Below are positions 7,801 through 61,992 of a DNA stretch of 64,000 bases, one piece after another; the first letter of the stretch is position 1, and each line of letters begins with the position of its first letter. A program made the position numbers and the translations under genes. Location of the stretch: NCBI GenBank assembly GCA_030704615.1, contig CM060732.1, forward strand, positions 14,260,001 through 14,324,000, read 5' to 3'. A model generated the notes under the pieces. That model worked only from the letters and a program-made list of their open reading frames with translations, ran no database searches and was not told where the DNA came from. This stretch comes from Takakia lepidozioides. Taxonomy: Eukaryota > Plantae > Bryophyta.

Positions 7801-9696
7801 AAACATCACCCAAGCATTTGACAAGTTTCCAGTTGTCATGCGAGTGACCAAGTCGACTCCACTCCCAGGCCCACACGTCGACATTTTAAAAATGTAACAA
7901 CGATCGGATTCGCTGCCTTGCCCTGGAAACCTGCTACCTTGGATGTAGTGATATCCAGTCATTCGTTTCACCTCCAGGATTGAGTGCATGTCCGACCCCC
8001 GGCCGAACTCCTGCTTGCAAGATACGATGTGATTCCCCACATTCGGACTACAAACGTGCGAGACGGACTCCAACAGGTCAAGCATCTCCTCTTCGTTCAA
8101 GGGCACTCGGTCTGAACCATCTTCAGACATGATTTTGCCAAGAGCAATCTTTTGGGCTGCCTTCACCTGAATCTGCTTTGGTCTGGCTCCGGGGCTCAAT
8201 TTCACCTCCTCTTTTATGATGTCGTGTGCTTCCTGCACAGCCTCACGCATGTTGCCTCTTGCCAAGGGGTGGCAGTGGACCCCAACGTGTATGCAAGCTC
8301 TAGTCAAGTCCGGGAGCAAATGGATAACGTAATATTGCTTGGCTCTGCACATGGACATGCACGTCGGTGGTTCTTTGCAATGTGCGCTCTTGAAAGTACC
8401 CGCAGGAGCTTGGCTGGAGACAATGAATGGATGATGCGTTGAGCCAGTCCAATCCATCTCATTTCTCCGCCCTCCTTTGGAGAGAAAGTGGAAGCAGGCG
8501 GGATTGAGGCACCTCAGCTTCCCCGCACTGAGGACGTATCGTACACGAACACCATCAGCAATTTTTGTGCTACTGGTCTTCACACACCAGGGGTTTCTGT
8601 CATGCTTTCGATCCATGTCTGTTAACATCCCTGAGGCTTTGTTTGAGGAAGTAACAGGTGGAAACTCGTAGATGACATTGCCATCGACTTCGGGAGGCAG
8701 ATACGTTACCTTCCTAACTGGAAATTTGGCATAGTCGAGAGCAGCCAGCTCGGAGCGAGAACCATCGAGGTGATGTTCCGTAGGAGCTGCACAATGGACC
8801 GGGTTGGAGTTATGGTCAAGGGTACATGTGTAGCACCTGCAGAGACGTCCATGTCGGATTTGAACGACCGTGTGGAGGACATGGGGACCTCAATGCACTC
8901 ATCTTCCTTGTCGGAAATGTCAAATACGTTCACACGAGAAGCTATGGAGGGTCTTGACGGTCCAGGTCGGGAATGATTATCGTTGCATACCTCTCTGTTG
9001 GCAGTGGCCGCCTGTCGGTTTCCAGACTCCTTTGTGGATGGTGTGGGCAGCGACTGATTCGGAAAGGGAATGGGCATTCCCACAGCTCGGTACAGGATGG
9101 TGTCTGATGGGGGTACGTGCCATTCGATTCCGCAACCTCCGTCGTTACCTAGCACACGACAATGGTTCTCGTCAACCTGTCCAGGAACATCCTTCCTTTC
9201 TTCTTCCCAATAAACTGTGCCGGTTTGAGCTTGAATTGGAACAAAGGTAAGTTTCAGTCACTCTGCAAAGTCCTCCCTCGTTTGGGATCCAGGCTCTCCC
9301 AAGTTGCGGAGGACAGCAAACTATAGCGTAGGAATTCGGAGCCATCGAAGACCGCACGAAGTTGGCAAGTGCGAGGTTCAGTATAGCAACAGACCAAGGC
9401 TCACAGACACCATATAAGTGGATCTGCGGAGTCCATCGACGATTGGAAGTCGCACATTGAAGTGGAAAGTATTGTTTCAAGCTACATGCATGAAGGTGGG
9501 AGGTGTGATTCCATAGCCAGTAAGTATGACAATGATGGCCGATTCGGCGACGAAATAACATCTCCTGACAGTTTCTCCTGAGGGTGGATCCAGCAGTAGT
9601 CTCGGTGCAGACATGAACGTTCGCACTGATAAGTGCCAGGACTGTTAGTTAAAAAGGTCAGACAACCAAGTTGTGCTCATCAAGACAGGCCGCAAT
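4842..9696 (-). mobile_element. MULE family B copy 2 (reverse orientation), truncated by a family A end
   Basis: Begins GAGGTTTACTATTTCATGAGC plus CATGAGC repeats, is an inverted copy of 1-2204, and contains the transposase. Confidence 0.9.
5751..9290 (-). pseudogene. MULE/SWIM transposase of family B copy 2 (intron about 7185-7254), frameshifted
   Basis: ORF 7249-8628 has a Cys/His-rich GCM/WRKY-like region, VMFDHIKR (D1), FMADNA (D2) and CGFH (CxxH). Exon 2 has NMAESVH (E) and a SWIM finger. Frameshifts near 6720 and 9050-9240. Confidence 0.88.
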
Positions 9697-10787: not shown

Positions 10788-11287
10788 NNNNNNNNNNNNN
10801 NNNNNNNNNNNNNNNNNNNNNNNNNNNNNNNNNNNNNNNNNNNNNNNNNNNNNNNNNNNNNNNNNNNNNNNNNNNNNNNNNNNNNNNNNNNNNNNNNNNN
10901 NNNNNNNNNNNNNNNNNNNNNNNNNNNNNNNNNNNNNNNNNNNNNNNNNNNNNNNNNNNNNNNNNNNNNNNNNNNNNNNNNNNNNNNNNNNNNNNNNNNN
11001 NNNNNNNNNNNNNNNNNNNNNNNNNNNNNNNNNNNNNNNNNNNNNNNNNNNNNNNNNNNNNNNNNNNNNNNNNNNNNNNNNNNNNNNNNNNNNNNNNNNN
11101 NNNNNNNNNNNNNNNNNNNNNNNNNNNNNNNNNNNNNNNNNNNNNNNNNNNNNNNNNNNNNNNNNNNNNNNNNNNNNNNNNNNNNNNNNNNNNNNNNNNN
11201 NNNNNNNNNNNNNNNNNNNNNNNNNNNNNNNNNNNNNNNNNNNNNNNNNNNNNNNNNNNNNNNNNNNNNNNNNNNNNNNNNNNNNNN
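10788..11287. other. Assembly gap (500 N)
   Basis: Run of N. Adjacency across the gap is not established. Confidence 1.
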
Positions 11288-13968: not shown

Positions 13969-16900
13969 ATGGAGAAATATCTGTGCGTTCGATACCACCT
14001 GAACCGGGGTCGGTTTTTTTGGAGGAGGAAAGGAAGGACTCAAACGGCGTTGTTGTCGAGAGTATTGTTGTGCTCCATGATGATTTTCGGCGATGGCCAG
14101 GGAATGGCGAGTTCCACCATCGGACAGCGTCATATACAGGGCTGTTGGGGACTTCATTTGCCCGCCAAATGCACCTTCTATCCTGGCGCCTCCCACGAAA
14201 CAATCCGCAAATCAGAGAGTGGCTACCTCAAAGAGAGAAGTCCGCAACGAAGTCAATCCAGAGCCGAACCCATCCATGAAGACGAGCGAGAACCGGGTTG
14301 TTCACAACCTGTCTGACTCAGACGAGGTCATGGAAGTTCCGAGGTCGTCCTTGAGATCAGGCAAGTCCTCAATGGACGTCAGTGGAGGAGGGAGTCATAT
14401 TCCCAGCACGAGCACCGCAGTTCGATCTATTCTTGAAATTCTGCGAGGGCTTCACATGGAGGGACACCGCTCGGAGCTGGCCGGGCTGGACTACAGCAAG
14501 TTCGCAATTAAATCGGTTACATGCTTCCCGCTGACGTCGACGGTAATATCTTCTTTGAGTTTCCTCCTCGGGCGGACTATTGAGGGCGTCCGGAATGTTG
14601 ACAGATATGGATAGAAAACATGACGGTCATCCTTGGTGCGTTACCAAACCACAGCATGAAGATGCTCGATGGTGTGCGGGTGCGCTATGTTGTTTGTGCG
14701 GGGCGCGTTGCGGTGTTTCTCTCCCCAACTTGCTTCCACTTTAAATCCAGAGGTCACAGGAACGAGACCGATTGGATAGGCACAGCTCATCAACCATTTC
14801 GAGCTCAGGAGAAGGTTCCGAACTCCACATTTAAGTGTGCGCATTGCAAAGAACCACCACACTGCATGTCTGTTTGTAATGCCAAGCAGTTCTAGTTTTC
14901 CCTGACCTCACCCCAGCTTGCATACACGTTGGAATCCCATTGTCACAATTTGGCGAGGGGGACTCGCGGGAGGCTGCCCACGAGGTAGAGCAGCTTGTTC
15001 AGGAGGAGGTTAAGTTGAGACCGGGTGCCAAACCAAACAGATACAGCTCCAAGCCGCCCATAAGATGGCGTGGCCAGAATTATGTCGGAAGACGGCTCCG
15101 ACAGAGTTCCTCTCGATGACAAGGAAATGGAGGCATTGCTGGAGTCGGTGTCCCACGTCTATTCACCGAATGTCCGAAACCACATTGTGTCATGCAAACA
15201 GAAAATTGGGCGTGGCTCGGATATGCACTCCATTCTGGAGGTAAAGCGACGATGTGGATATGACTACATTCATGGAAGTCGGTTTCCAGGACAAGGGACT
15301 GAGGCAGATCGTTGTTTTGGTATCCAAATGTCCACGTGTGGACTTGGCACGGCGTCGAACTGGTCCACAGGATGACGAGTGGGGACTTGTCAAACGTTGG
15401 GTCATGTTCGACCATATCAAGCGAATTACAAATCACCAGTGGGTGACAATGTGTAGTGTGAATGCAGGGGACAGAACATTACATATGTTTACCATTACGA
15501 CCTACATCACTATGACGGAGTGCCCGTCATCCCAACTGCAGAAAGGATGTATCCCTTCATGTAGGTAGTTTCATGAGCGCACTGACTTATGCTTTGCCAG
15601 GAGAAAAATGGCTAAGTCCTGACGGTACAACATTTTCATCCATGCGATGAACGTTTTTCATCGCTGGTTCTTGACCTAAGAGATCGCGGGTTGAGAAAAA
15701 ACGAAGAGGAAGATGACGGATGGCTCGTAGCGGCTGTTGCAAAGCAGTGGTGTCGGCAGGGCAGCCTGTGTTAGGAGGTTTACCTGCGCGGTGGGATCTT
15801 GCTTGGCTTAGGAAGCGGCATTAAGACGCCTCTGCTTGGTATTCTGTGTAGAAAGAAGCGGTGCCCGCCTCTCTCGTAGTGATGATCAATTCCAAGAGAT
15901 AGAAGCATGTAAGGAAAGCGGCGCACCACCACTGCCGCCAGTGCCTTAAGATGATAGTTATGGGCAGATGAGCAAGCAAGGAAAAGGCCAGCTGCTGAAA
16001 GCACAGGGAGGAGAGTCTGGCACAATCAATGGGGGGGAGGTAAAGCATGTGGGAGTTCTGGCTGTATGGTATCTCAGGTTCTCTGTCATTAAGCTTCTAG
16101 CTGCTTTGTGTCTCCTTGTTATAGGACCAGGCCAATTCGAGAGGAAGAATTGCAATAGCGTAATCTGGTTGTCAGGCCACAGGATGGTCCAAGTGAAGAA
16201 GGGGAGCCATCATGGCCGTCATAAGGTCTGGAATCAAGACAAAGAGAAAGGGTTGAAGTGGCTGCTGACGGGCGATGGCAAGGTGCCACCTTGACAGGCA
16301 GACCCGCCGCTTCACTAGTGGATAAAAACAGATAAGTCGATGAACAGAGGCTTCTTTTTGGCGAGGACTTAGAAATTGCTTTGGTAGATTAGGACTGCCA
16401 TCTTGGCAGAAGAGAAAAGGTAGAGACATGTGACAAGAAAAAGTTTTTGAATGGGAATGGAGACTCTGGACTTCAGACCAGAACGTGGAAGGATGGATGC
16501 ACCTTATGTTGTGATGACAGTGAGAGAAATAAGTGAAGAGAGAGAGAAAGAGAGAGCCTGTTCGTCACTGAATTCAGAATGGTCACTGTTGTCTTCATTC
16601 TTGCATTTTGATTCAGTGTCATAAACCTGGACACCATGCTGCCGTGGTAGTGATAACCTGGAACCAATGTAGATCTGGCTTGTTTGTTTGGAGAGATCAA
16701 TGATGGTTAGCTGGAGTTGCAAAAAAAAAAACATGGAAAAGATAAGGTGATTTCACTATGGGATCAGGATCTGAACAACTGCGTTCCACAGTTGAAGGGA
16801 AAGAGGGATGTTGGGGGTATTTGGGTTGAAGTCTGACAAAAGAGATTGAGAGTTGTTTGAGCGATGGGTCTTGGAAAAAGGGACAAGAGAGAGAGAAAGA

Positions 16901-19465
16901 GAGAGAGACGGATGGATGGGATGTTTGTGTCTTGAGAGACCGAGGATGACTTCAAGGCTGGCCGCACTGGATGCCTAGCAGCGTGTGCATTCACATTACA
17001 TGACATATCTGCTGCTGTGAAATAGTGGGGAACTTGGGACATAGACAGAGATAGTGAAACAGACAAAAAGCGAAAAGAAAGAGAGAGAGTGAAAAATGGG
17101 ATTTGGTAAGAGAGAGCTGCAATTCAAAAGGGCTGTTGGGGGGGGGTTTGGCCAATTTGGGGGAGATGAGATGAGAAAACCTGAAAGAAACCAGTGCCCC
17201 TGCAGACCATGAAGATCTGAGCTGCCTCCTCCTAAATCTGTGTCACCACTACAAAAAGGGGATTTCCGACCTGTCACTGCTCAAGTGGGCTTCACATAAA
17301 GGATCGTGTTTACCGCTGCCATTGGGCTGATTTGCATCACTGAATACACGCACCAGCATAGCTGGTGCTGTACCTGATGATGGGGATGTTGTGTAAAAGG
17401 TAGAACCAAGAGTGAACAACAAATTGACTCCCCATCCTGTCTTCCCTTCCGCTGCGGCGTGGATGAGGATTGCTTGAACTCTGATCACGGAGGAGCTGAG
17501 GGAAACCCACAGCCAAGTAACGACAGTTGGACAGATTAGAAAGAACGCTTCTTTCCTCTTGCTCCGCAATCAATGGAGGGGAGCACAATTAGAATTATAC
17601 AGAAGGGGATTCACGCCCCTTCTTTTCACACTACAAATGGGTGCACATGTCTACGACACCCACTGCAGGATGCTAATGACAATTGCTATTTGTGAGATGA
17701 AAGGAGAGGACACACAATCGGAGATGCTTCTTTGGGCAGGAAATAAACGAACAGATGGCCAAGGCGGGATTGCCCCCTCCCAATTTCCGTGGTTTCATGG
17801 CGGACAACGCACACAATTGGGCTGCCATCCGAAGGGTGTACGGGGAAGACCCCAATGTTCCGATGGAAGACAAGGAGAGATCTTGTGGGTTCCATTTTCT
17901 GCAGAGCCTTTCCCAGTACACAACCAGGCTCGTGGCGCCAGATTTCAGAGAGGAGCACCGTTCCATGTGCCTTGCATGGAAGCGCACTCCCACCTTGGTT
18001 GATGCAGAGACACAGTTTGCATGTATACGGGCTTGGTGGACATTGTCAGGTGCTGTAAGGAAATCAGACGAGGGAGCAATGGTCAGTTGGCTAGCATGGT
18101 GGCATTATCGTTTCCTCCAGTTTGGCGACTATATGCGGGAGGTGAGTTGCACGAATTCGCGTCCCGTTGAATATTATTCTTGGCCATATTTGTAACTTGC
18201 TTGTAACATCAACATATGCTTGTGCAGGAAATGTGTCTCGACTCCGACACCGACATGCCCACGACAAACATGGCCGAATCAGTGCACTCTTCCTGGCGTG
18301 CCTCCTCTGCGGCGCATCTGGTGGACATCCTCACTGCCACAACGGAGGACATTGTGAGGTCAATTATGCAGCAAAGCAGGTACAACGAGTTCTTGAAAGG
18401 GAAACAGTGGGGCTTGGGGCCGGACAGGCAGGAAATGCTGATGCGGACTGCCTCTAGATCAAAGAACCGGTGATGTTGCCCGAGGAGGTCTCGTCGAGCA
18501 CCGCAAGTCCTGCACGTTCAAGATCGCCATCTCCTTTGAGCACAGGGCGCGTGCCTCGGCAACATAACGAGCCATCTGTAGTAAAGCAGTACAACATTCC
18601 CATTGTGGAGACAAGAGTGTCGGAGTCACAGTGGAGAATTGCGAGGACATTGCCGGCATTTCGAGGGAAGTGCTGCGCCATCCGGATGGATACGAGAGCA
18701 CGCTGTGGTGAGATGATTCGGAGGAACCCACACGGTGCTGTACCTGCACCTTGTTTCAGCCGCAGATTTTTGACTCCCACATTTGCTCACGCCACAACGC
18801 AGACATTTTGGTTCTGTAGGCACGACATAATGACCTGTGTATTTGGCAAGCCCAAGTACGGGATTCAGGGAATGCCGGAGCCTCCGGGTGTCTGGCCTGT
18901 TGCACCAGGTTGCAGCCTCTCTCAGAATGAGGCGGATGCTCTATCTGCAGCAGGATTTCGAATGGTGCAACGCATAGACATCCCGGCCCACGCATTTCTG
19001 GTTCCTCAGACCCAGCCATTGCAGACTGCTCGGTCCAGTAGAGACGGATTGGACAATTCTGCACATCCCACAATGCGATTCGGAAGAGTGAAGAGACGAC
19101 ACCCTCCCAACAAGTTGAATGAGATTCGGATTGCCAATGCTCTTGGGATGGCTTGCACTATTCAGAGCTCCGTGGACGTACCCCCACCCGGCCTTGGGCG
19201 TGTGTATCAGATGGCAACGGCCGGCTCGGCTGTACGCGACGATGTATACACAATTACGATTGGAGTGGAGCCGACTTGCAATTGTACGGACTTCTCGTTG
19301 ATGGAAGCAAAGAAGGGTTCGAAGTATTATCCGTGCAAGCATCTGTATTACATTTACCTGAAGAGGTTGAGGATAAACCTGACTATTGATGACTTTATTC
19401 ATGCACCGGCGTTGAGCGTGAACGAGCTGCACAAACTCCTCCTTAGGGATTCCAGAAATCATTGA
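13969..19465 (+). pseudogene. MULE/SWIM transposase of family A copy 2, frameshifted and split by an insertion
   Basis: Same motifs as 53440-56945, with many indels, a 2.2-kb insertion and an internal deletion. Confidence 0.88.
15452..17635. mobile_element. 2184-bp TG...CA element (solo LTR or non-autonomous element) with 4-bp TSD AATG
   Basis: Termini TGTAGTGTGAA...TTCACACTACA form an 11-bp perfect inverted repeat, flanked by AATG on both sides. The empty site GTGACAATGGGTGCAC is seen at about 54928-54943. Confidence 0.85.
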
Positions 19466-20017: not shown

Positions 20018-20216
20018 CTTCCAATGTCTGTGTTCCATCCCATTTCACGTACAAGCCGAACGAATTTGTATGCATTATTACTTGCTCCTTCGCATTTGTC
20101 ATTACTTGCGTTTCCAACATGCATTGTCGCATAGCAGTTCACGAAATTCATGCCAACAAAGCAAATTGGGGGAAGTACCTTGAATTACCTGGAACCACCA
20201 AGTCATGCGGTTGAGC

Positions 20217-20393
20217 GAGGTTAGCTATTTCATGATCATGAGCGGCATGAGCGGAGTAGTAAGACAATCGGTTTTCATGAGCAGAAGTACAAATTTCGAA
20301 AATAAAAAACAATAAAAAACATTAATTTAATGCAATGTGTCAGGAAAAACAAATATATTATTCGGCCCCTTGAAGGGAAAATTGTAGTTTTGA
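20217..20393 (-). mobile_element. Inverted right terminus of family A
   Basis: GAGGTTAGCTATTTCATGA at 20217. Reverse complement of about 57665-57851. Confidence 0.8.
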
Positions 20394-22202
20394 CTACGTG
20401 ACACGTTTCAGATGTGCATACAAGGACAACCTCTTCGCCACGGAGCTGCAGACAGCAAGAAGGAGCGTGGAGTTTACACATTAGGAGGGGGCGGGAAAAG
20501 CTGCAATGCGAATTGTGTATAGGTGAAGCCCAGCTCCCGTTGTATGCAAAAGTTGGGTTATGAGGTTTGCCTGGGAAATGCGGCACCGCATTAGCACTTT
20601 ATGTTTTCATAAATTGTGCTCACGCATGTTGACTGTCTTGCAGGTATATGTGATGGAAATACGTGTTACTTAAGACAGGGGCCCTGGCGCAAGAGCCCCC
20701 GTTCTTCATGGCTTGGACCGTGGCGGGCCCAAGCTGTGTCTACACACCAGAGATGCAGAAACAATGGCATGTCGCGCATCTCGTTGGATGCCCGTGGTAC
20801 CTGGACATGTCTGGCGGACTTGTTGACGAATCGGAGAAAGATTTGCACGCGAAAGCGGAGGAGAAGAGAAGGGAAAGACGTGTCCCTGCTCGGCCTGAGT
20901 CGGCAAATGACGCTGCTGCTCTGGAACAATCCAGAAAGGCAGCTGAGATGGCACAGAAGACGGTGGATGCAGCTGTGCAGGCTCAACAGAAGGGGTCAAA
21001 GAAGAGGACTCGCCAGCAAGGAGCAGCAGTTGTGACACCCAAGAAGACGAAGAAACAGAAACAGAAAGAGCAGGAAGAGGGTGAAGAAGAGGACTCCGAT
21101 GGAGACTTTGCAACCGGCCCACCCCCCGAAACGCAGTCAAAATCGCATGCGCCCACTGTTGTCACAAGGGATGAGAACAGGCTCAACAAATAAGGCACTC
21201 TTCAACCCCCCGGGGGGGGCACCCTTTCGAGCCGGTGGAAATGAAGAGGCCGAAAGTGGAGCCAGAAACAATAGTTCAGTGTGTGAATGAGAGTTTCTTG
21301 GCGGCTTTGGATGGACAGGCAGCCAAGTTGGCATACATGAAGACCATACAGGGTCTGAAGGGCAGAGCACTGAAGAAGGCGGCTGCCGAAGAGCCTTCCG
21401 ACACCCCTGGGTTTCTGAAGATGGTCTCGTTCTTTGCAAAGGTGTGTGCAAGGAAGGATTGCAGGAGGGGTGGAAAAGCCACCGAGTGGTCTTGCGATAT
21501 GATCATCTTGGATATTCCGGATGGAGAGCCTGTGGAAGGACTGCATGCTTTGCCGCCTTGGAACAGGTACTCCGAGGACTTTTGGAAGAAATGATTCGGG
21601 CTCGCCCGCATGGTGTTGGATGAGAGAGGCTATGTCGTTGTCCTTGCGAGCAGAGGCAAAAACACGGAGGCGGGAATTGCGAAGTGGACCCGCAAGAGTG
21701 CCGTCCCAATTCTGAAGAAGAAGTGGACGTGCATCAACACATTGGGCCTTTGGTCGGAAGGGAAGAAGGTAATTACCACATTGGCAATCGTCCTTTCATT
21801 TTGTTAGCTGTTTTGATATGTGGTGCCGCATTCGAATTCTAATCGTTCCCCACTGTGTATGCAGACGAAGTAGTTCGATGTATACTGCTTTGTGAAGGAG
21901 AACTCAACCTTTGCTTACCGGAAAGAGGATTGTTAGTTGACCGGAATTGCGACCCCATCGATTACAACCTCCTGTTCAACAACGTTCCCACGGAACTCCT
22001 CTCTCATAGTCTCACTTCAATGGATCCACTGCGGTATTCACGGACTTGGAGCCCTACCTTCATCAAGACAATTATGGAGGCATGCACTGACCTGGAGGAC
22101 AGAGTGTTGGACCTCATATGTGGAACAAGTATGCAGATTTTGGTATTATGCTGTTCTGCGAATTTTCATTATGTTCAAATTTTGCATTTCTGCTCAAGAT
22201 CT

Positions 22203-22620
22203 GGTTAGACCAAGTCTACTTAGGGAGTCCACTGGAGCGATAAGTGGTGCACTGTACCAGCATATTCCATCATTCAAATCTTCAATATCAAAAAATGAAA
22301 GCTTACCAATAGTGACTTGGCTTACACTACGTACCAGCATGTACCATCATTCAAATCAAGTAAGATGCTTGCTTACCAATAGTGACTGGGCCTGCAGTGG
22401 ACAAGCTTGAGCCTTGGAGCACCGTGTAAACAAAGAGGGGCACTTTTAGGGTTTCAAAGGAAATGAAGTTGGGTAGCTGGAGCTTGGAAGGGATTCAAGA
22501 CTTGGTATAGTTCCGTCTGCGGTGGATCATCTTCTTCGTTAGGATGAGGCGACGGGCAATCTCCATTGTAAACATTAGTTACCAAGGGCCAGGTTTTAAT
22601 GAGTAGATGCCATTCTAACG
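22203..22620. mobile_element. Small insertion in an intron, possibly an LTR remnant
   Basis: The homologous intron in family A is only 84 bp. Imperfect inverted ends GTTAGACCAAGTCTACT / AGTAGATGCCATTCTAAC and an internal duplication GCTTACCAATAGTGACT. Confidence 0.4.
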
Positions 22621-23539
22621 GGTGCCTCAATGTGGGCTGGGCGGTTTTCCGACCGGCACCTCTTTGCCTATGAGGAGGACACATCCGTCTGGGGATCCCA
22701 TCTGGAAGGGCTTCAACGGGAATGTGAAGGCTCCCATCGCATCCACAGATTCCTCAGAGGATTCGTCGGACTCGGAGGAAGAGACAGTGGACATTGATGC
22801 CGAGGAGAACCCGGAATACGAATGAGTGCAAACATTGTAAGTTTGCAAAGCCTTCTGGGTGATTTTTTCTCACATGCATTTCCGGATTGTGGTTCTCATT
22901 GGTCTGGTGAGTGATTGTTATGTGCAGGATTCCAAGATCCGGGTCGAAACCAGTGGCGCATACATTTCTTGCCAGGGAGAATGTCCCGTTCTTTGCGAGG
23001 ACCGACTTCATGAAGAGCCCAGTGAAGGACTACTCCCTTCCTAGTTATGCAGCTAAACTTGCAAAGACAGCGATTAGACGATGTGAGAATCCTAGTAAAG
23101 TAGAGCTGATTTTGGAGAGGGTTAGGGAGGACAGAAGGATACGGAAAGAGTTGGCAACAGCTGAGACAGGTAGACGGGTGCGGAAGTATGTATGTGATTC
23201 AACGGAAGAGAGCGATGTAGACAGGGAGGACGACGACCCAATGGAGGTGAGATGGTCAGTTCCGCAAGGGGAAGATGGGATTTTTGAAAGCCTGGCGAAC
23301 AACCAGTCCGCTAGACATGAGAAAGGCAATGAGGGGGTGGAAGGGGAGCAAGACAGTCAACGACAGGATGACGATAGTGATGATGATTTCCAAGATGGGT
23401 AGAATTTTAAATAACTCTTTGTACATTTACATTCTCTTCCAGAATATATAAAGGAATTTCTCCACGTTGTTGAGGTCCCCTCTCCCATGTGCTTCTAAAC
23501 ACCACTTCTCGACACCATCTGTGAAACCACGTCCTTCCC

Positions 23540-24170
23540 AAAACCGGAAATGCGGCGCCACATTTCCATGTCGGAACGGAAAAACAGAAATGTGGCAACT
23601 GCAAATACATCGTTTTGGAAATGCGGCACGACATTTCCATAACCGGGGCAGGAACAATTTTCTGTTTCCTGTTTTGGACATCAGAAATCGTTCGGCCGAA
23701 CTAAAATGCGGTGCCGCATTTCCGTTTTCGACATGGAAGTTTTGCCCATTTCCAGCTTCTTCCATTGAGGTAAATGGAAATGCGGCGCCGCATTCTGGGG
23801 TCGAACACGTTATTCCCATGCCGGACATGGAAATGTGGTGCCGCATTTCCATTTTGGAGATGGATTTTTGTCCAATTCCAGACACTTCGCCGGAAATGCG
23901 GCACCGCATTCCATTGTCCAATATGAAATGTTGATGACGGATATAGAAATGTCGTGCCGCATTTCCAGAATGGACATGGACATGCATTGGCGATTGGACA
24001 TGCTTGGACAATTGAAGATCGAATATGGAAATGCGGTGCCGCATTTCGAATTCGAAGTATGGAAATGCCTTGTCAAGAAAGGAAATGCGGTACCGCATTT
24101 CCGTTACGACCAGAACGGAGGAGTGGGAGCTGCCGGAAATTGCTGCAAATGCGGTGCCGCATTTCCGAGC
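23540..24170. repeat. Array of GGAAATGCGGCGCCGCATTTCC-type palindromes
   Basis: About a dozen variably decayed copies (e.g. 23546, 23703, 23776, 23892, 24027, 24081, 24147) with unique spacers. The same motif occurs at 5325, 5466 and 20575. Confidence 0.85.
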
Positions 24171-24394: not shown

Positions 24395-25021
24395 TTAAGC
24401 AAGTCCAAACAAATCCAAGCCCTTCCGCCTTCTACATGGGCGACACCAAGTCGACGGAACTTCGATAGCCCTCAAAACAAGCTCATTTGTGACGCGGCAC
24501 CTCCAGGTAAACTGCATTGCGGTCGTTCTGGTGCCCTTGCTGGAGCTGACGTCAATGTCATGCCCATCAATGATACCACCATCATACATTGATAAGGTCA
24601 ATGTGGGCCTCATGTGCCCGTGCGATTCGTCTTCACAACTCAGCCGAATGTCTCCATACTCTGGAAGAGCGGAGTGAACTCCACGAAAATAGTTTTCCCC
24701 GGTGCAGTCCTCCCTGGTCCATTGGCAGCAGTTCCAGCGCCAAAGCGAGGCCGTGCGTGATCTGTCCGGCATCCCATTCCAGCTTGGTATATCGAGGTCA
24801 ACAATTTGCAGCACCCATGGACAGCATTGACCCTCGCCCTCACCTCTCTCAAAGCGGTAACAGTCCTCCAAATACTCCATTGCGCGCAATGACTCCCGCT
24901 TGACTCCAGAAGCGTCAGTGAAAACAGAGAGCCAGACAATGATGTCTCCTGATTTGGGTTTGAACATCGCATAATCGTGGCCATGATAAGGGCAGTCAGC
25001 AGGATTGCGGCTGCAGGGCAT
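24395..25021 (-). CDS. Hypothetical protein, about 208 aa, transposon-associated
   Basis: Open ORF from MPCSRNPADCPY. Clear paralogue of 36989-37552 (DYAM, SGDI, FERG, RWNCCQWT, YGDIR, DGGxIxGHDI, QFTWR, ELVLRA). Confidence 0.7.
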   Translation of the reverse strand: MPCSRNPADCPYHGHDYAMFKPKSGDIIVWLSVFTDASGVKRESLRAMEYLEDCYRFERGEGEGQCCPWVLQIVDLDIPSWNGMPDRSRTASLWRWNCCQWTREDCTGENYFRGVHSALPEYGDIRLSCEDESHGHMRPTLTLSMYDGGIIDGHDIDVSSSKGTRTTAMQFTWRCRVTNELVLRAIEVPSTWCRPCRRRKGLDLFGLA

Positions 25022-25146
25022 CTTTGCAAAAGAGTAGCGGAGTACGCTGAAGGATAGCAGCTCCTGGATGGAGGAGGCAGCAGCGCGGTGGCAGGAAGTA
25101 GAGAGGAAGGAGATGACAATTTGTTTGCAAATGCTGCAATTCCTCA

Positions 25147-25590
25147 TGTAGTGTGAATGCAGTGGGGGCAATTTAAAATTTAAAATTTTACTGTTGCTCA
25201 CTGAGTTGTTTGTATTCAAGAGAGGGACCCAGTACCAGTGTGAAAGGGGTTAAGTTGTGCCCCGTGGGTTTTTCATTCATTGGATAAACAAATTTCTCTC
25301 GTTAGATGGATGTGTTTCATTGTCATCGAGGATGCAATATCGGGGAGGCCCTGAGAGTGTTGCGGGCAAGGGAATGAGCAGGGGCAGTGTGTAGAAGGTG
25401 ACTTAAGCACATTATGCTTGTCTTGATTTGCCATGAAGCATAATTAGGATAGTAATAATGAAGGGGAGACAAAGGGGAGGCAGCGTTGTAACCTGTGCAG
25501 CTGCCAGAAGGAAGAAGCGGTGCCGTCATTTCTTTGATGAATTGCAAATTTAGACTCGCTGGAGGATAAGCATGCAAGGAGACAGCTTGG
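25147..25590. mobile_element. Left end of another TGTAGTGTGAA-family element (right extent uncertain)
   Basis: TGTAGTGTGAATGCAG is identical to the start at 15452. Confidence 0.45.
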
Positions 25591-26341
25591 TAAAATATGC
25601 TCGTGCCAGATGAAGGGCCCACAAATTCAATGGACTACAATCCTTCCCATCTCTCCACTACCAATCCTGCCTCCACTCCCCCATTGCGCTTACACTACTC
25701 ATCCTACGACAAATGCGTATCATCATACAAACCGACCTACCTGGCTACCCCAACACGATTTCCCAGCTGGAACATGCCCTGAATACCAGCCCATCCCTTA
25801 TTCACTTTGAACGCCTCCACCCCCGCCAAAAGCGGCCCCTCCTCACCTACTTAAAGGAACAACATGTCACCCGTCTCACCCAACTTACCACCACGTCTGG
25901 TACCCAACTTATAACCCCCGGCGAATTCACAGAGAGAGAGAAGACTCTGGCCAAAGCCGGCGTAACTAAGAGCCACTTCGCCTTGCGGTTACTGCCCCCT
26001 GTCGGGGGTGGGCCCTATAGGCGAATTCACACTTAAACACTCTCGTGCCACGGCTAAAACCTGTAGGTTTCTCCAACACCTACGTACCCTACTCTGCCAC
26101 CCCTCTGCATCCTGCACCCTTGAAAGTGATCTTCTCTGCTTACTTTTCCCTCGTACCCAGACTTACTACCGTCTACAGATCAGCCCCATCCCCCTCTATT
26201 CTCCACACGCTTAGGACTTCCCACACCACTTGTATATATGATGGTGACACCCCATCTACACCCACCTCCCCTATATCCTCCTCCCACTCAGATAGGGACT
26301 CTACCCAACCCCTCCCCGCTCACGCCCATATGCTCCCCCTT

Positions 26342-27410
26342 TGTTAGAGGACTGTCTGGGACTTAGACAGTTTTATGGGTTCTGTGGGGTACCCTTAATT
26401 TTGCGCAGACTCACGGATGGTAGGCTCAGACCAACAGAGGCCTTAGGGGTGACAGACACAGGCCTTAGGGGTGGTAGGCAGGCTCACACAGTCAGTCACA
26501 GGCTTACACAGCCTTACACAACCTGACACGGCTTGTCACAGTCTTACACAGTTAGACACAGCTTGACACAACCTGTCACAGCCTACCACAGTCAGACACA
26601 GTCTGACACAGCTTGTCACAGCCTGACACAGTCTTATACAGCTTGACACGGTTTTACACAGCCTTACATAGCCTATCACAGCCTATCACAGTCAATCACA
26701 GCTCGACACAGCCCAACACAGCCAGTCACAGTCCGATACAGCTTGGCACAGCCCGTCACAGCGTTCACCGGGAATGGTTATCATTGGCAAGGAACGACTG
26801 TGTGGGAACGACATCTGCAGAGGGAACGTGCATTCTGTCTTGGATAACAGTTAGTTAGTTAGGCGGTTAGAACAGCTTGCAGGTAGAATAGGCAGAGTAG
26901 CAACATGGAGGGGGGCACTTATAGGGGCACTTGTGGGTCATCACGGAAGGAGATCAGGCGGAGAGCATGATCTTGAGCGCAAGGATGAAAAGCATGGTGA
27001 AGGAGGAGAGACAATCTGTTGATGTTTGATACATGCAAGCTGTAGAGATGCACTGTAGAGCAGATTAGAGACACCATGGCTTCGGCCTGATACTTGATAG
27101 ATATTAATTTGATACATATTTCATACTCACACTGTGTAGAGAGACCTGAGTGAAGCTGTGGAATGGATGCTTGGGTAGATGGAACCTGGTAGATTGCTCA
27201 AGCAATCTGTTACTTAATTATAGACAGTAAGGTAAGTTGCTAACATGAATGCGAGAATGAATACAAATAGGAAGCACCCCCATGATACACTAGCTGTAGG
27301 TCATGACTGATTGTTCTAAGCGGGCTGAGTGCTTAGAGATTTCCAACTCTTCTATCTTGGAGTTCCTACCTCGGATAGCAAAGAGATGGGTGAGTAAAAG
27401 CCGCTCAACA
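26342..27410 (+). repeat. 5' LTR with internal ~10-bp-period ACACAGC/TCACAGC minisatellite (26484-26762)
   Basis: Direct repeat of 35432-36529. Confidence 0.92.
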
Positions 27411-27412
27411 TT

Positions 27413-27430
27413 TGGCGACCATACTGGGGA
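27413..27430 (+). promoter_or_regulatory. Primer-binding site (Arg-type, Tat/Ogre-like)
   Basis: TGGCGACC...CTGGGG two bases after the LTR end. The tRNA identity is inferred. Confidence 0.6.
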
Positions 27431-28016
27431 ACTGAGTCAAGAACAACCAGATGTGACAGGCATCTGGTGGGATCACGGTGGATGGAGAATTAAAGAATTT
27501 GATGTGAATCAAATTCCTTGTGGAACTGAGAAAGAAAGATTGTCCAAACAATTCTTTCAGAGGTTATTGGAATTGCCAGACGGTTGCAAGGAAAACATTC
27601 TTAAGAGAGTGCATGATGCTGATCCAGAGTGGGGTCTGGAGAAATGAGTGATAAAGATTTATCAAGTGGCCTGTAGAGGGAGAGCAAGTTGGTTACCAAC
27701 ACTGGTTTATATGATAGCATTGCTATCCATTAAACGAGTGGAGTTTGAAAGCTGGGAGGAGGAAAGTGAATGTTTACACTCACATGCATGAAGAACTTGT
27801 ACGGGTAAAGAATTGGATTCCTAAGGATATCCTGTGGATCAAACTTACACCAAGAACAGCTTTTCAGACGTGCCTGCCATATGGTTATATGGTAACGGAG
27901 CCTTCTAGTATAGCCAAGGGTGCATTAAAGCTTGAAAGAAATCCAGGCATATACGTGAGATACTACAGAAGAGAGTTTTGGTTATTGCCTCATGAAAGAT
28001 ATGAAAGACATGGGAC

Positions 28017-30700
28017 ATGAGTTATGAAAGAGAGGCTAGACTCCACAGATATTCAGCAAAAAGAGAAAATTATTTAAAAGCTAATTATCCATATCTCTGG
28101 GAGAGAGGAATAGACATAGGGGAATCATCTGGACCTCTCACACCATTAAGACCAGAGTGTACATCACCCATACCGAAAGAACCAGAGTTGGATGCCACTC
28201 CTTCTTATTCTTTACAAGAAAGATTAAGGGATCTGGTACAGGAAGAAGATCAGCCACGAGGGGAAAGATCTGAGGTACATCCCTGGATTCAAGATTTGAC
28301 AGAATTCTTTGATCAGAGTTGGCATGGAACACCAAAAGCAGGAACTCCAGTTTTTGAAGCACAAGACAAAGAAGGAGAGGATGACGTGGCAGAGCCAACG
28401 GAGAGTTCAGACTCTCCAACACCACTTCAGTTGAGTTATATGAGTGAGGAAGAAGAAATCCAAGAGAAGAACTTGGAAGATGAAAACAGAGAGAAGAATT
28501 TGGAAGATGAAGAGTATGAAGAAGTAGACCCAACAGTTGAGGTTGAGACTACAACCAGGACATCCCAACCTGTTGGACCTGGATCAAGTGGAGCACTTGG
28601 ATCACGGGCCAACAAAGGTGTCGGCTTAGGGGGATCAGGCGGGCAGCTTGGATCTGGCTCTGGGGGGACCGGGAGTGTGGGAAGTAGTGCAACTGGAGCG
28701 GGGGATACTGCAAACACAGGGGGGCCAGTAGCAGGGAGTGCTTAGGGGCCAACACCTGGTGGGAGTTCCACCACTACAACAACAGGTCCTCAAGGACCAA
28801 CACCAACAGGAGGACCAGCACCTGTCAGAGGGCAGGGTGTAGGGCCACAGATGGCAGTACCTCCAACACGGGCAAAATCACATTTTCCAATATATGCAGG
28901 AAAAGGGGATGCTGATGTACACATCAGCCAATTTGAGCACATGTGTATTGTGAACAATGAGAATGGCAATGATGCCAAGATGAGACTGTTTCCTTGTTCA
29001 CTTATCAAGAAAGCAAGTGAATGGTATGCAAGGTTTCCTAATAATCATTTCCTAACCTGGAATGGCCTTAGTACAACATTCCGAAACAGGTTCAGGATAA
29101 GCAAGACTGAGGATGAAGTGTATGGGAGTTTACAACAGTTAAGGCAAAATAAGCATGAAACTGTTGAAGAATATATGGAGAAGATGGAGTTGATGATGAA
29201 AAAACTGGCTGCTGTACCAGCACCAAGATTACAGAAGACTTGGTTTGATATCCCTATACATGCATGTGATATTGCACATTTGGTATGCGTTGCATTGTCA
29301 CTTTCACGTAAAAAAATTTGTGTAGGTATTTGTGGGTGGGGATATATGTAGGACCTGAAGATTCGCCATCTTCTAGATCCCATGCATATTGAGAAGAATG
29401 TCTGCTCGTCCCTTTTTTGGGTTCTTCATGGCACGCTGGCAAAGAAGGGAGTGGCTACAAAAGGAGATTCTCTTGGTGTTAGAAAGGAGCTTGAGGAGCA
29501 GGGTCGCATGCGCCATCTATGGGCCGAACAAGATGGTGTGGACCCAAAGGGTGTTGTACGGTAGAAGTATATGCGCACACCTTGGCAATGGACAAAGAAG
29601 GAATACAAGAAAATGATAGCCACCATAAGTGTTGTCCGAACACCAATTGCGCTACCACTTTTTTCTCCAAATCCAGTCCAACCAGGGAGTAGAGTGACAA
29701 TTCGCTGCATCAATAAGAGGGCCACATCATTGAGTGGACTAAGACCTGAATTACAAAAGAAAGTGGATATGTTACCTCATAATATAGTGGAGGAGGCATT
29801 CGAAACAGCCAACAGAATTGAGCAATTGGGAATGCTCAGAAGAGATAAAAGGGAAGATGAGGACTCCGAAGATGAGTCAGATGAGGAAGAAGAGCAAGAG
29901 CTCAAGAGGAAAAGCAAGAAGAAGGAAAAGTTGAAGAGGGACAACTATGAAAAAAGATTGGAAGAAATCTTGAAAAAATACGTCACAGAGGCTGCAACAC
30001 ATTGGAGGAAGGGTGTTTGGTGTGCAAAGTGCCAAAATGAAGGTCATACCACAGCTGAATGCCACATGAAGGAAAAACACTGTACTATCTGTAAAATGGA
30101 TAACCATTCTATTGAGAATTGTTATTACAACAGAAGGACAGCTGCAAGAGAACCTAGGCAAGTGAGGGTGCACCAGGTGCAACCCTAGCCAAGAAGAAAC
30201 AATGAAGGACCACTATGGTAGGCCTGGTGGATATACCAATGGTATGGCAGGAAGAGGTAATCCAAGAGGGAATTACCAAGGCAATCCTTGAGGCAACTAT
30301 CAGGGTAATCCAAGGGGGAATTACCCCAGGGAATCAGGATTATAGAAATAATCCCAGAATAGACCAAGGGCGAGGACCCAATGGTGAAGAACTGTGTTAC
30401 TATTGTAATCAGGCAAGACATCGCAAGGCAGCCTGTCCATTCTGGATCAGACACCAGAATGAGATGAGAGCTCCTGTGAATGAGGGCCCAGTAGTGGCAG
30501 CTCACATGGTTATGTCATGTTTTGTACCAGAAGTAAGTACAATGATAGTTACCAGAAGCAAAGCTAAACTAATACCTCCAGTGGATGAGGAAGAAGATGT
30601 TAATGAAGATGGCAGTGATGTGCCTGAAGATGACGAGGCTTGGAGAGATGAGAAGGAACTGCACAAGGAAGTGGCTGATACCATAAGGGAAATGCAGAAG
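28017..30700 (+). pseudogene. gag polyprotein with zinc knuckles, degenerate
   Basis: FPIYAGKGDADVHISQF...RLFPCSL...ASEWY...LRQNKHETVEEY, plus CAKCQNEGHTTAEC, CTICKMDNHSIENC and CYYCNQARHRKAAC. Contains stops and an insertion. Confidence 0.82.
29247..29729 (+). pseudogene. CACTA/EnSpm transposase fragment inserted in gag
   Basis: HLLDPMHIEKNVCSSLF is the characteristic CACTA Tnp2 motif. It interrupts gag between QKTWF and LSGLRPEL. Confidence 0.7.
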
Positions 30701-31859
30701 TTGTATTGCCTGTGTTGGGCTGTGTCGGACTGTGGTGGGCTGTGATATGATGTGTTAGACTGTGGTGGGCAGTGATGGCTGTGTGAACACCTGTGTTCTC
30801 TGCTATGGCCATACACATTCGGCTTAATGACAAGTGCTTCATGCTCCGCTGGTGCTACTGGTGGAGCCTGTGACTGCATCTATGTTTCAAGATGTAAATC
30901 ATGCTGCAATGGTCTATCATGGATACCACTGTATCCCTTCAACTTATTGGCATTGACTCTACCAAGCATCTCTTTGTTAATGGTTTGTAACATAGCTGTG
31001 TTGTTATCATACATCTTATGTATGACATTAAGGTCCTTTCCACGGTGACTTAAGCTTAGAAGCTTTAATCTTTCCTTTCTTCTGCAACCACACACAGGTT
31101 GCACAGTCCATAGGGTCAGTGACAGGTGGACACGAGTTAACGACAGTAAAGTGGCCGGTAAGTGTAAAGATAGTTTGGAAGCCAAACTTGGAGAATGTGC
31201 CACGCGGACAGAGGGAGATGGAGGAGTGTTTGAATTCAAACACGTGGCCTAAGGGGCAAAGCATTCCGCATTGCATGTACTGCAATAACGACCGCCATCA
31301 CACAAGAAGACAAACAGGACCGTCAAAGTACCTACCCGATACATTAGCTGAAACTTGCCCATTAATGCATCAAGAGGACAGGTAACGGAACACTTTACGC
31401 GTCCGGCAAAGGGGAACCTTTGCCACATATGCAGTCCTAGTGGTCATTCCAAGCGGGAATGTGAACAGATTAAGGTAAAAACAAGAAGTTACCTAATGAG
31501 GCAACGGCCAATCAGCAATGTGAATTTCATGCAAGAGACTCCATTCAAGAAACAAGAACAAGAAATTAAGAAGATTATGGGCAGAAGAATAGGAGTTATT
31601 CCGGATAACCAGTGTCTCGACGGGAGAGGCAATCAAAGCTATAGCTTTGTAGCTATGGCGGATATCACGGACTATACACTAGCTCTACTTCTTACGCAGT
31701 GGCGCAAGGAAGGACAGGCTGAGAGTACCTTCTCTCTCACCCACTATTTGCAAGCCCCGCAGGCTTACACTCACTTGCATGTTCCATTTTGTGCTAACCA
31801 CACATTCATGCTTTACGCCTTACAAGCTTTCCTACAGCTATTCCAAACAAGGCCTTCTT

Positions 31860-34800
31860 GTTTGTCCGGGATGAAGAGAATTAGATAGATAGAGGATCTC
31901 AGGGTGAAGAGCACGACGATTCTACAGAAGCAGACAATCGCTACACCACAGGCAGTGCAACTGCTGAAGGAGCTGCGGTTGGAGGGGTTGCTACGCAAAG
32001 AGTGGTCTTTGCATCATCGGGGATTGATGATCCAATTCATCCAGAACTTCGAGCCACGGACAGAGTTACCCAGGTGAAGGGCGTAGATATACAGGTTACT
32101 CCGCAGTACTCGCAACAACTATTTTAATTGCCATCTGGTAATGTGTGCGTGGATGAGCAAAGGGCAAGATTGCAAGTAGTGGATCTGTTCCAAGAAACAA
32201 GTTTATTCAGGAACCAGGGATTCACTTGCACCAAGGCCGAGTATCCAGGGTTGAGGGAAATTGGCCAGATACTAAACATTCTGTTTGCCATGAAATAGAA
32301 CCAACAGTATCTTAACAGATCTTTCACGGAGGAGGTACTGAAAGCTTTGAGATGAGAGGATGTAGCTTGGGCGGAGATGATGTACAGTGGTCTGGTGGAG
32401 GAGATGAAACAGTTACAAAATACTACTGCCAAGTCCCCGATCATTGTGTCTAGCCCAATTATTGCACAGATTATCTTTGATTCTTGCTTGCTTGATGCAC
32501 GGGAACGCAAAATAATGGGGGTGTTTGAGGCAGCCACAACTGCAATTGAGGAGCAAGGCTCTTCACAAGGTGAAGGGGGATTGAAGGGGCAGCACCAATC
32601 CAAGAGACAGAAGAGGGATGCAACTGTAGTGGCGGATCCACCGGCCACAAGGAATCCACATGATGATGTTTCCATAGCTCCCGTGTAGGACAAGGAGGAG
32701 CAGCACAAGGGGCTGTTATTACTAGAAGCACAGCCTTCAGAGAGGGAGGAAGAAGTCACCTCAGTACCACAGCCACCACAGCCAACTGACCCGGTTGCCC
32801 CAGGGGTAACTCAAATTGGACATGCTGTTACACCGGAGCCTCTTACTGTGGAGGGAGAGGGGTTGGACATCCCTACTACAGAGCAAGTAGTGGCAGAAAT
32901 TGAGAAGGGCGACATTCTCTATGAAAACTCTGGCATGGTCGGAGAACCCATGGTACCAAAGATGCAGGGTATGCCCAAGGAAATCCCTGTTGTGCAGGTT
33001 ATGCCCAAACCTGTGGCGGAGGTTAAAGGGGTAATGGGTAAGGGAACTGCAGCACCTATGGAGGATGAGGTTGCTCAGGAAGAAGATCCTGTGGGATCAT
33101 GGCCTGACTGGTTTGTGAAACATCAAACTGTGGAGGATCAAGAAGAACAGTAGTAAGTTCTCCATGAAGACCCACAGCAGGCCATGCTTATGAGTTCCAT
33201 AAGCAGGACACTTAATTTATTGGGCACCTATGTCAAGACCCATGTTCCTTCCATACAATTGGCAACATTGAGGGAGGAGCTCAAGCAAGAGTTTGAGGCA
33301 AGAATTGCCACTGAGTGTGCAAATAAGGTGGATGTGGAGGCCAACCTTAAGTTGCAGAAAGAGTTGGAGGACACTAAATCTGCTCTATAACTTGCGAAAG
33401 AAAACTTGATTGAAGCAGGTATGGAGCAGGAGAAGTTGCATGAAGTACATAAACAACAACTATACCAGTTGCAGGCTAAGCATGAGGGCAAGTTGCAGGA
33501 AGTGCAGTTGCTTCATACAGAGTTGGAAGCAGTCCATCAGAGAATGACCATACAGTGTGCCACACTAACGACTAATCTGGAGCTGACTGCACTAGAAATT
33601 AAGAACCAAGCTGAGAGATGTTTAATGGCGGAGACAGAGTCAGTGGAGCAGACAAAACTCATTGCTGATATGAAGGCTACTATCTGTCGCAATGAGGATA
33701 CCTTTCAGCAGTACCACCAGGTCGATGCCTAGAAGGACAGGTACATCCTTGAATTGCAGCAAACAATCACAGTACGGGAGAATGCGCTTTATGTGACTGA
33801 CAAGGCCTGGAAAGAAGCCAATAATCTGTCCGCTGCCTATGCAGCTCTGGTTGAACCTCATGCGAAGCGCATGGAGAGTTTACAACAACAGTTGGATACA
33901 TATAGACTCAAGGAGGAGCAGGATCTCCGTGGTGCTACACAAGACTTGGTGGATAATCATCTTTTGCAAGAGTGGTTAACACAAGGGCCGGTGGCAGGGA
34001 AGGCACCAAGAAAGCTCACCCAAGATGAGATGAATGATCTCAGGCTACGGGTGTAGAACATTGCCACAACCACTATAGACAATGTCTATAGTCGGATAGT
34101 TGAGTTGCAGGAGGATGTGGAATGGCTGCAGACTCAAGTGGATGACTTGAGCTCCAACATTGATAAAAGGGCATTTGTTCCTATGGAACAACTCATGGCT
34201 ACTTATTTGCATGCCAGGACTTTGATTTTCCAATCTTCAGCACAGGAAATGCAGGACTTGCCAACATCAGGAGGGATTGTGGCAACCGCATTACAGCAAC
34301 CATGCCAGGTCGACAATGTTGATACCATGGCACTGCAACAATCACTGTCTGAGGTTTGGGGTGATGCTTCTTTTAACCCACCTACTACTCCTGCTGCACT
34401 TGAATACAATCGGCCTATGATTATGCCCTTCAACCAAATTCCCAGTGTTATGAATTTGGCTTGGAAAGAATTCAGTCCTCCAGAGTCTTTGGCACACTAT
34501 TACCAGATTATGCGCATTTGGTTGCCAGTGGCAACTCGGACTAAAGTTCTTCCAAATGACAGACCCATTGAAGATCACCATTTTGCGCGGTACTGGTCTG
34601 AGGCAGGCACCATGCTGAAGGAATTAATTGCCTTTCAGATTGTTCATGGATACATCTACACCAAGACCAAGGAGATACCAAGTTTGGTCATGGGTTGTGG
34701 ACTGTATTATGCTGCTTGTTTTATTTCACGCTATCACATTGAGCAGCAAAAGATGTAGATGAGATTTCAAACTTATTCCAATGGGGATCATTGGGTGATA

Positions 34801-35000
34801 CCTTCGGTTCCATCACATACATATATGTATGATGTAAGAATCATGCTTCAGAAGGATTCCCAACTTCGTTCTTGGTTTACTTTTGCTATGGAGAATTTGG
34901 CCAAAGAAAACTTGGGTCTTGACCACATTTTTTCTAAAGGGCATGAAGCCAGAAAGTGGTTACACTTCTCCAACGTCATTGGCCTACCACACTAATTTTG
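31860..35000 (+). pseudogene. Long additional ORF of the LTR element (coiled-coil-rich), broken by stops
   Basis: Consecutive same-frame ORFs (32377, 32848, 33184, 33406, 33754, 34105, 34759) separated by single stop codons. E/Q/K/L-rich heptad-like segment. No RT, RNase H or integrase motifs. Confidence 0.6.
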
Positions 35001-35431
35001 CCAGCAAGAGATTGATACAAGTTTTAAAGTTTAAGCTTCCAGACATGGTGGGCAAACACTGTATGCCACGCAAGATTCCTGAGAAACCACATAAGCTCAG
35101 GGCACCGAAAGGCCACCGGGGGAAAGATGATTATGATACTACTGGTTCTATGGAGGAACCTTTCGACATGGCTGAAGATTATGCAATACAATGGCAGAGA
35201 AGAAATGACGGGGATCTCCTATGCCTGAGAAGTTACCTCCTTATCAGCCAAAGGAAGGGCAGTCATTTCCATTTGGTGGACAGTCATCTCCACCAACCAG
35301 CGACATGGCTCGGGCTTACACACAAAGCCCTCCAAGGGACTCTCACCGGCAGAAGGGTGCTCGTTCACAAAGGTTTGCTGATCCTAAATAGTAAACCATG
35401 AGGACATGGCTTTTTGAGAGGGGAGGAATAA

Positions 35432-38134: not shown

Positions 38135-38460
38135 TGTAGTGTTAGAAAAGAAGGGCATAAATCCCTTCTGTCTAATTCTAATCTAGTTCTTAGTGAAAGG
38201 TAAGCTTGCTAGCCTAAGACACAAGCCCTTAATCAGTGACTCTACACCATTCATGATCAGAGACCAAATGAACCTCATCCATGCCGCAGCGGAAGAGAAA
38301 ACATGGATGGGACTGGGAAGTTTCTCCCTTTCATGACTTGGTACATCTAAGTAGGGTTTGCATGCACCAATAAGGTTGGTGTGATGATTTCAGTCTTACA
38401 AACAGATCACTATCAGGGTGAATACACAACCTATGAAGTGATTCCCTTGCACGGATAATA
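38135..38460 (-). mobile_element. Diverged fragment of the TGTAGTGT-family element (right end, reversed)
   Basis: TGTAGTGTTAGAAAAGAAGGG...CCCTTCTGT.TAATTCTAAT and CCTCATCCA.GCCGCAGCGGAAG match the reverse complement of 17430-17635. Confidence 0.7.
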
Positions 38461-39603: not shown

Positions 39604-39604
39604 A

Positions 39605-61990: not shown

Positions 61991-61992
61991 CC

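Follow-up and report, generated by a model that had tools for sequence, protein, structure and literature searches.

We describe here a degenerate accessory (cargo) gene of a Mutator-like transposon family, together with the array of 22-bp palindromes beside it, in a 64,000-nucleotide stretch of Takakia lepidozioides DNA (GenBank assembly GCA_030704615.1, contig CM060732.1, positions 14,260,001 to 14,324,000 of the forward strand). This stretch, referred to as the window, is of eukaryotic origin and consists almost entirely of transposons, among them two related families of Mutator-like elements (MULEs), A and B. The 3' half of a spliced, broken family-B cargo gene lies at 20395-23402 on the plus strand. 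Its features, in window positions, are:

20395-20522, 20644-21768, 21865-22128, 22622-22821 and 22928-23402, plus strand: exons of the family-B cargo gene, from comparison with the family-A cargo gene
20482, 20651, 21592 and 21871, plus strand: in-frame stops (at least four), from reading-frame analysis
near 21212, 21920 and 22718, plus strand: frameshifts, those at 21212 and 22718 being one-base insertions or deletions relative to other copies
20574-20595: one G-type palindrome within intron i5, which in family A contains a nine-unit, 95-bp array
21487-22719, plus strand: beta-class amino-methyltransferase-like domain with DIPD at the position of CcrM DPPY and the S-adenosylmethionine (SAM)-binding half (DLICGT, FAYEED) downstream; the fold was predicted for the homologue P0017 and not for this copy
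23546-24166: ten 22-bp palindromes of the G type in an array, spaced 53-85 bp apart in helical phase and separated by unrelated spacers; an 18-bp unit is the only tandem array there

An earlier note, made from the letters of the window alone, had claimed that this gene is a homologue of the family-A cargo gene with shared conserved blocks and identical intron positions, that an array adjoins it, and that the motif of the array recurs in family-B copy 2. Each of these observations was reproduced. All of the named blocks align with the family-A cargo gene on the minus strand (46875-44582); E values for the four main exons range from 1e-19 to 1e-40, and 50% of the amino acids are identical over 442 codons. 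The proportion of synonymous differences (pS) is 0.74 and that of nonsynonymous differences (pN) is 0.33, corresponding to synonymous (dS) and nonsynonymous (dN) divergences of ~3 and 0.44; the pair was therefore under purifying selection. Five introns occupy identical codon positions, i5-i8 in place and i4 within an inverted piece just upstream, and the splice sites of three of them have decayed in the family-B copy. Judged by its stops, frameshifts and decayed splice sites, this copy is dead. In comparison with other copies in sequencing run X2, it differs at 69 T>C and 58 A>G places but at 25 C>T and 43 G>A places, an excess that is expected after deamination.

Ten units between 23546 and 24166 lie within four mismatches of the G consensus, whereas none appeared in 300 simulations, and window-wide the consensus has 40 matches within three mismatches compared to 0 in 100 shuffles. 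G-type units also stand at 5325 and 5466 in family-B copy 2. The deamination that the earlier note had read from the array fits its substitutions, 16 of 25 being C>T or G>A and 13 of these lying at CpG. Spacings between units (43, 53, 63, 74, 85 and 95 bp) are phased at 10.2-10.8 bp (p 0.001, 27 distinct spacings), and the family-B array, with its unrelated spacers, is phased when taken alone (p 0.004, nine spacings). None of the 89 units in the window falls within its 21.8 kb of coding DNA; as these units form ~11 clusters, the evidence for avoidance of coding DNA is moderate. A symmetric, phased site of fixed length that stays outside exons and occupies the same intron in families A and B suggests binding by a dimeric protein in arrays.

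The consensus palindromes of the two families differ at one symmetric position. At positions 6-8, all 26 family-B half-sites read TG[C/T], as compared with TGC in 6 of 150 half-sites in family A. The earlier note had taken the G variant for a minority unit of family A; it is indeed rare there, although it occurs only as one-sided half-sites and never as a symmetric unit. Besides TTC, family-A arms read TCC and AAT, so that family A does not have a single T motif. The 53-bp array of family A (51177-52410), which mixes TTC, TCC and TGC arms, is arranged as a large inverted repeat.

The elements of the two families, and the stretch that separates the family-B transposase from the cargo gene, are positioned as follows:

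44307-57851: complete family-A MULE with related ends and an identical 8-mer on both flanks (8-bp target-site duplication), from self-comparison and a termini scan
~50450-44582, minus strand: spliced family-A cargo gene within this element, with a ParB-like motif near 49160
53210-56945, plus strand: family-A Mutator-like transposase, head-to-head with the cargo gene; arrays are also present in the element
1-2204: family-B copy 1, partial, its right end nearly the same as those of copy 2 and of family A
4842-9696, minus strand: family-B copy 2, partial, with a right end and a Mutator-like transposase head-to-head with the cargo gene, its probable partner, from sequence comparison
5241-5524: block with the two G-type palindromes of copy 2, missing from copy 1 and standard in the family; contigs bridge both edges at transposase-level depth
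9697-20017: insertions of family-A DNA, and a gap of 500 N in the assembly (10788-11287), from self-comparison and the termini scan

The transposases contain the words FDH, MAD, CGFH and NMAESVH, which we take to be MULE hallmarks (DDE transposase, CxxH, SWIM finger). A SWIM finger match reached E 0.006, below the cut-off, and the Pfam MULE model did not match the window transposases. The family-B transposase is 74% identical to that of family A, and their right ends are nearly the same. No transposase is contiguous with the 20395-23402 copy, and neither a left end nor a matching target-site duplication of copy 2 was found in the termini scan of the window. The sequence nonetheless makes it quite probable that this cargo gene belongs with the family-B transposase: the orientation fits the head-to-head layout of family A, synonymous saturation between A and B is equal for cargo and transposase (pS 0.74 in each), G half-sites lie near the right end of both family-B copies (2068 and 4961), and the block that bears the units at 5325 and 5466 is a regular part of the family. 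Depths of the main contigs in run X5 are similar (143-177 for the transposase, 131-193 with one value of 46 for the cargo gene), which lends weak support to the link; such depths are not copy numbers, and the contigs bridge nothing between the two genes. The block at 5241-5524 was considered as a private insertion and rejected on account of the bridging contigs. A plus-oriented piece of family-B transposase at 4490-4841 adjoins the right end of copy 2, which may thus sit inside another family-B copy. The A and B families nest repeatedly in one another.

The palindromes could instead be binding sites of the transposase, serving end pairing or self-activation, with the cargo protein doing something else. 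We regard this as unlikely, though not negligible. In its favor, arrays adjoin the right ends in both families, the motif splits along with the transposase, and 10.64898/2026.08.24.746577 reports that the AtMu1 transposase suffices by itself to bind its family and activate it. Against this, arrays also lie in cargo introns and between genes, kilobases from the ends, and the element termini use a different repeat (CATGAG clusters) that is common to A and B. No palindrome units were found beside the two Mutator-like transposases that have no visible cargo gene (39610-44300 and 57852-64000). Since the arrays lie deep inside the element and are missing beside these two transposases, the cargo protein is the better candidate for binding.

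The 5' part of the cargo protein, which in the window is present only in family A, is likely a ParB-type domain, as judged by motif; its exon is absent from the 20395-23402 copy. A GxxR-type motif reads VWDGNHH in family A, [DE]G[NL]HR in the homologues P0001, L001, L002, L004, L008, L009 and L011, and DGNHK in P0002; the accessible text of bioRxiv 10.1101/2025.10.10.680097 gives GxxR as a motif (box II) of the ParB-CTPase fold. The same source, in the part available, describes phage and bacterial fusions of a ParB-CTPase fold to an N6N4-methyltransferase, which share the domain pairing of the cargo protein but are prokaryotic and intronless, unlike it. Such fusions are one likely ultimate origin of the cargo gene, and among phages the ParB-like part had no sequence-level match.

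The downstream part of the protein is predicted to adopt a permuted beta-class N4-C/N6-A DNA methyltransferase fold, with motif IV before motif I. The window cargo exons alone match no Pfam family, PF01555 included. A profile of the last methyltransferase-like exons matched M1.HpyAVI (E 2e-5) and 35 proteins, of which 19 are family-like. The remaining 16, long proteins matched in multiple stretches, were dropped; four that were checked are cadherin-like or ankyrin repeats, and the other 12 were dropped on the same pattern. Homologue P0017 is homologous to three window exons, and window exons align to both methyltransferase halves. Its predicted model has a predicted local distance difference test (pLDDT) score mostly of 80-90 in the domain core, matches M1.HpyAVI in Foldseek (E 5e-11) and superposes on CcrM with a Z score of 17.2 (root-mean-square deviation 4.4, 217 residues aligned); its best 20 structure matches all have N4/N6 methyltransferase folds. 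Word-index searches that took the DIPD exon and the motif-I alignment as queries, the latter covering only proteins of 1044-2980 amino acids, recovered no relatives, which is weak evidence, and a metagenome scan with the DIPD exon found none.

Predicted fold and permuted order (catalytic before SAM-binding motif) are shared with CcrM, M1.HpyAVI, M.MboIIA, rotifer N4CMT and Marchantia DN4MT1. In contrast to these beta-class enzymes, the cargo gene is transposon-borne, has long added N-terminal and linker regions, and carries DIPD-like words in place of DPPY or SPPY. The catalytic (D/N/S)PP(Y/F/W) is missing, DIPD aligning with CcrM DPPY, and motif IV has no aromatic residue in any of the six sequences that show it (DIPD, DIPD, DLPE, EIPD, DVPS and DVPS). 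The putative SAM-binding motif I and the acidic residue that follows it read DLTCGTG and FAFE in A, and DLICGT and FAYE in B. Loss of the catalytic word with retention of the fold favors binding and shielding over methylation. Even so, the protein might be an active non-canonical methyltransferase that writes N4-methylcytosine (4mC) or N6-methyladenine (6mA) in the palindromes and blocks host 5-methylcytosine, which we consider improbable. At saturated dS, DIP[DE], a downstream P-x-W-N and the SAM-binding half (DLxxGT, with an acidic residue behind the following strand) have been retained; the Marchantia preprint reports a bacterial-type 4mC enzyme that is active; and modification is proposed in the accessible texts of two algal papers (PMC12477816 and bioRxiv 10.1101/2025.02.11.637652). 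Opposed to it are the missing aromatic residue, a fourth residue that varies among D, E and S, and motif I glycines that vary among homologues; in rotifer N4CMT, altering SPPY abolishes activity, as stated in the accessible part of PMC8885841. The portions available of PMC4738411, PMC8885841 and the Marchantia preprint provide methyltransferase background and name no such plant element.

A metagenome scan with the ParB-like exon returned 20 loci; two of these, L006 and L007, represent a single locus that was assembled twice. Locus L007, on an unrelated contig, repeats the whole layout, with the transposase on the minus strand and the ParB-like part, the EPPFF-like part and both methyltransferase halves on the plus strand; L008 has the first three cargo parts. 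This common layout, with the equal saturation of cargo and transposase, upholds the earlier suggestion that the cargo gene is older than the A/B split. In a de novo scan of the 20 loci, clear repeated 22-mers were present in L002, L007 and L008, and a cross-count over 10 of the loci found a single palindrome type in eight and none in two. Arms of the CAACTTT type occur in L006/L007, L008, L011 and L016, and those of the ACCCTCT type in L002, L004 and L009. All four types, two from the window and two from the metagenomes, are 22 bp long with a CGGnnCCG core, and they do not occur across families except for the G half-sites in family A. Tracking of families by motif variants, which had been set beforehand as a test, was thus observed. 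In a tree of the ParB exon (11 sequences, 81 columns; L006, L012, L016 and six others left out), the metagenome types fall into separate clades, L002/L004/L009 and L007/L008/L011, with support of 0.95 each. Viral contigs gave 0 matches to the G motif. Locus L002 also has four perfect 22-bp palindromes at 24-738, spaced 213, 266 and 214 bp apart (~20, 25 and 20 turns of 10.6 bp) and upstream of an open ParB-like exon; it is possibly a young family.

Alternatively, the cargo protein might bind only the shared core, with the arms drifting neutrally through concerted evolution and no family-specific code. The consensus sequences of A and B differ at a single symmetric position, family A carries four arm variants, G half-sites included, and most family-A arrays are tandem repeats, all of which would suit such drift. 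Yet the spacers of the family-B array are unrelated and TG is kept in 20 of 20 half-sites, and distant families differ over whole arms while length, core and symmetry are kept. This explanation appears to us the least probable of those weighed here.

We favor, at roughly an even chance, the hypothesis that the cargo protein, likely a ParB-type domain joined to a methyltransferase fold that has lost its catalytic motif, binds the 22-bp palindrome of its own family and so keeps the family active. A dimer would bind the palindrome as ParB binds parS, reading family-specific arms around the shared CGGnnCCG core, and several dimers could sit on one face of the helix. The methyltransferase-like domain, probably without methyl transfer, would cover the CpG-rich core and so protect both divergent promoters from host silencing, and arms and protein would have changed together as families split. 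A bolder form, in which land-plant MULEs run a bacterial-style ParB/parS code, with a nucleotide-gated sliding clamp on phased family palindromes, shielding by the disarmed methyltransferase and one symmetric base separating sister families, seems unlikely to us.

Several points weigh against binding by the cargo protein as proposed. Motif and gene travel in one element, so co-inheritance alone explains the tracking, and each family with palindromes may possess a transposase as well, one that can both bind its own copies and activate them. As kin share palindrome labels, the tree demonstrates tracking and not co-evolution, and its 81 columns are few; 12 of the 20 loci show no unit or no repeated palindrome, and the 51-bp unit spacing of L007/L008 is off the 10.5-bp phase. 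As TTC, TCC, AAT and TGC arms are all tolerated in family A, its protein and that of family B may cross-bind. The 5' part gave no ParBc match in Pfam (only DUF1015, E 0.11) and no ParB match with PDB profiles, and its model (pLDDT 39) was too poor for a structure search; as family models, structure profiles and folding gave it no confirmation, the ParB label is used here as likely. PF01555 matches just 3 of the 19 homologues, all below its curated cut-off, and none of the exons in the window. Finally, CpG decay suggests that the array of the 20395-23402 copy was itself methylated.

Similar accessory genes are known from algae. According to the accessible text of PMC12477816, the Ectocarpus element Sola1-1_Ec32 carries, on the strand opposite its transposase, a gene for a protein of ~1100 amino acids with ParB-like and N4-C/N6-A methyltransferase domains, for which binding to its own element, and modification of it, have been proposed. 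The likeness to the cargo gene lies in domain order and gene orientation; Sola1-1_Ec32 has a Sola transposase and belongs to a brown alga, whereas the cargo gene accompanies a Mutator-like transposase in a land plant, and that text mentions neither palindromes nor loss of the catalytic motif. The available portion of bioRxiv 10.1101/2025.02.11.637652 describes, for PAG2/PAG3 of a Bostrychia Plavaka element, a ParB-like protein beside tandem inverted-repeat arrays that it is proposed to bind, a PF01555 methylase in the same element and homologues in Chondrus Mutator elements. Unlike in the cargo gene, two separate genes there encode a fusion of ParB to a 2-oxoglutarate oxygenase and a methylase fused with a SET domain, beside an EnSpm-type transposase. 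Both texts, as far as available, propose self-binding for single families and test nothing. Algal accessory genes with inverted-repeat arrays are thus already known; what is new here is that the palindrome arms change from family to family. No description of this cargo gene in land-plant Mutator elements was found in the literature, although subscription journals, supplements and Iyer et al. 2011 may hold one; the words ParB, MULE, Mutator and moss are all absent from bioRxiv 10.64898/2026.05.21.726589.

The anti-silencing VANC/VANDAL system of Arabidopsis, to which the earlier note had likened the cargo gene, serves as a functional model (PMC5735166, accessible portion). Both are Mutator-like with an accessory gene and with family-specific motifs in introns and upstream regions, and the motifs here are likewise dense in non-coding DNA, although they are palindromes, unlike those of VANC. 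Homology to VANC was rejected: VANC has DUF1985/DUF287 and 8-9-bp motifs in one orientation, whereas no exon or homologue scanned matched DUF1985 or DUF287 in Pfam, the cargo domains are unrelated, with a different predicted fold of the amino-methyltransferase type, and the palindromes are 22 bp long and phased. The activity of VANC has been shown experimentally, while the cargo gene is known here from sequence and predicted fold.

The window contributes a sister-family pair with a one-base symmetric change and two motif types that follow protein clades. With these sister families and two families that differ over whole arms, specificity can be tested directly by reciprocal binding, and the arm differences point to the positions that would set it. 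If the proposal is true, self-recognition by transposons would have arisen more than once, the second time in an unrelated system assembled from prokaryotic parts, and a nucleotide-gated ParB clamp acting in a plant nucleus would be new.

The remaining features of the broken cargo gene and its surroundings are:

20018-20215, minus strand: inverted 198-bp piece of cargo gene (exon end, intron i4, start of next exon), aligning with family-A 47850-48080
20216-20394, minus strand: inverted family-A right end from an insertion into the cargo gene, 92% identical to 57852-57665, with a terminal motif at 20217
22193-22596: insertion of ~400 bp in intron i7, rare among other copies, as shown by a contig joint 22192-22597 and by very low depth
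24398-25147, minus strand: further open reading frame (ORF) converging on the G-type array, 53% identical to 36992-37609, with repeat-level depth to ~25135

Contigs of runs X1, X2 and X5 (two samples) connect 20019 with 20392 on opposite strands and then continue into other sequence upstream, and other copies retain the upstream part of the cargo gene. The reversed gene piece, the reversed family-A end and the contig joins indicate an insertion of a family-A element into the cargo gene and, after it, a short inversion. A contig of run X8 (guessed to be RNA; record 25) matches 20018-20100 and 20393-20472 from the exon start after intron i4, which is a weak hint of a spliced transcript.

The ORF at 24398-25147 is possibly a second accessory gene; family-model and structure searches gave no convincing match for it. 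A second copy at 36989-37609 (minus strand) lies 290 bp inward of the left-type terminus at 36699, and a hybrid T/G palindrome stands at 37935. A piece of family-A cargo at 38556-39604, its 95-bp intron array included, is joined to the third of the Mutator-like transposases (39610-41990, minus strand), which is 46% identical to that of A. The fourth, at 57852-64000, has a repetitive linker and no palindrome units. A long terminal repeat (LTR) retrotransposon without palindrome units occupies 26342-36529, with gag remnants and two LTRs of ~1.1 kb at 93% identity. A family-A transposase is interrupted by an unclassified insertion (15455-17635) that has short matches near 38.2 kb (38135-38311). 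Beyond the repeat-level depth of the family-B stretch, an ORF at 25600-26040 resembles by eye the end of a long interspersed nuclear element (LINE) protein.

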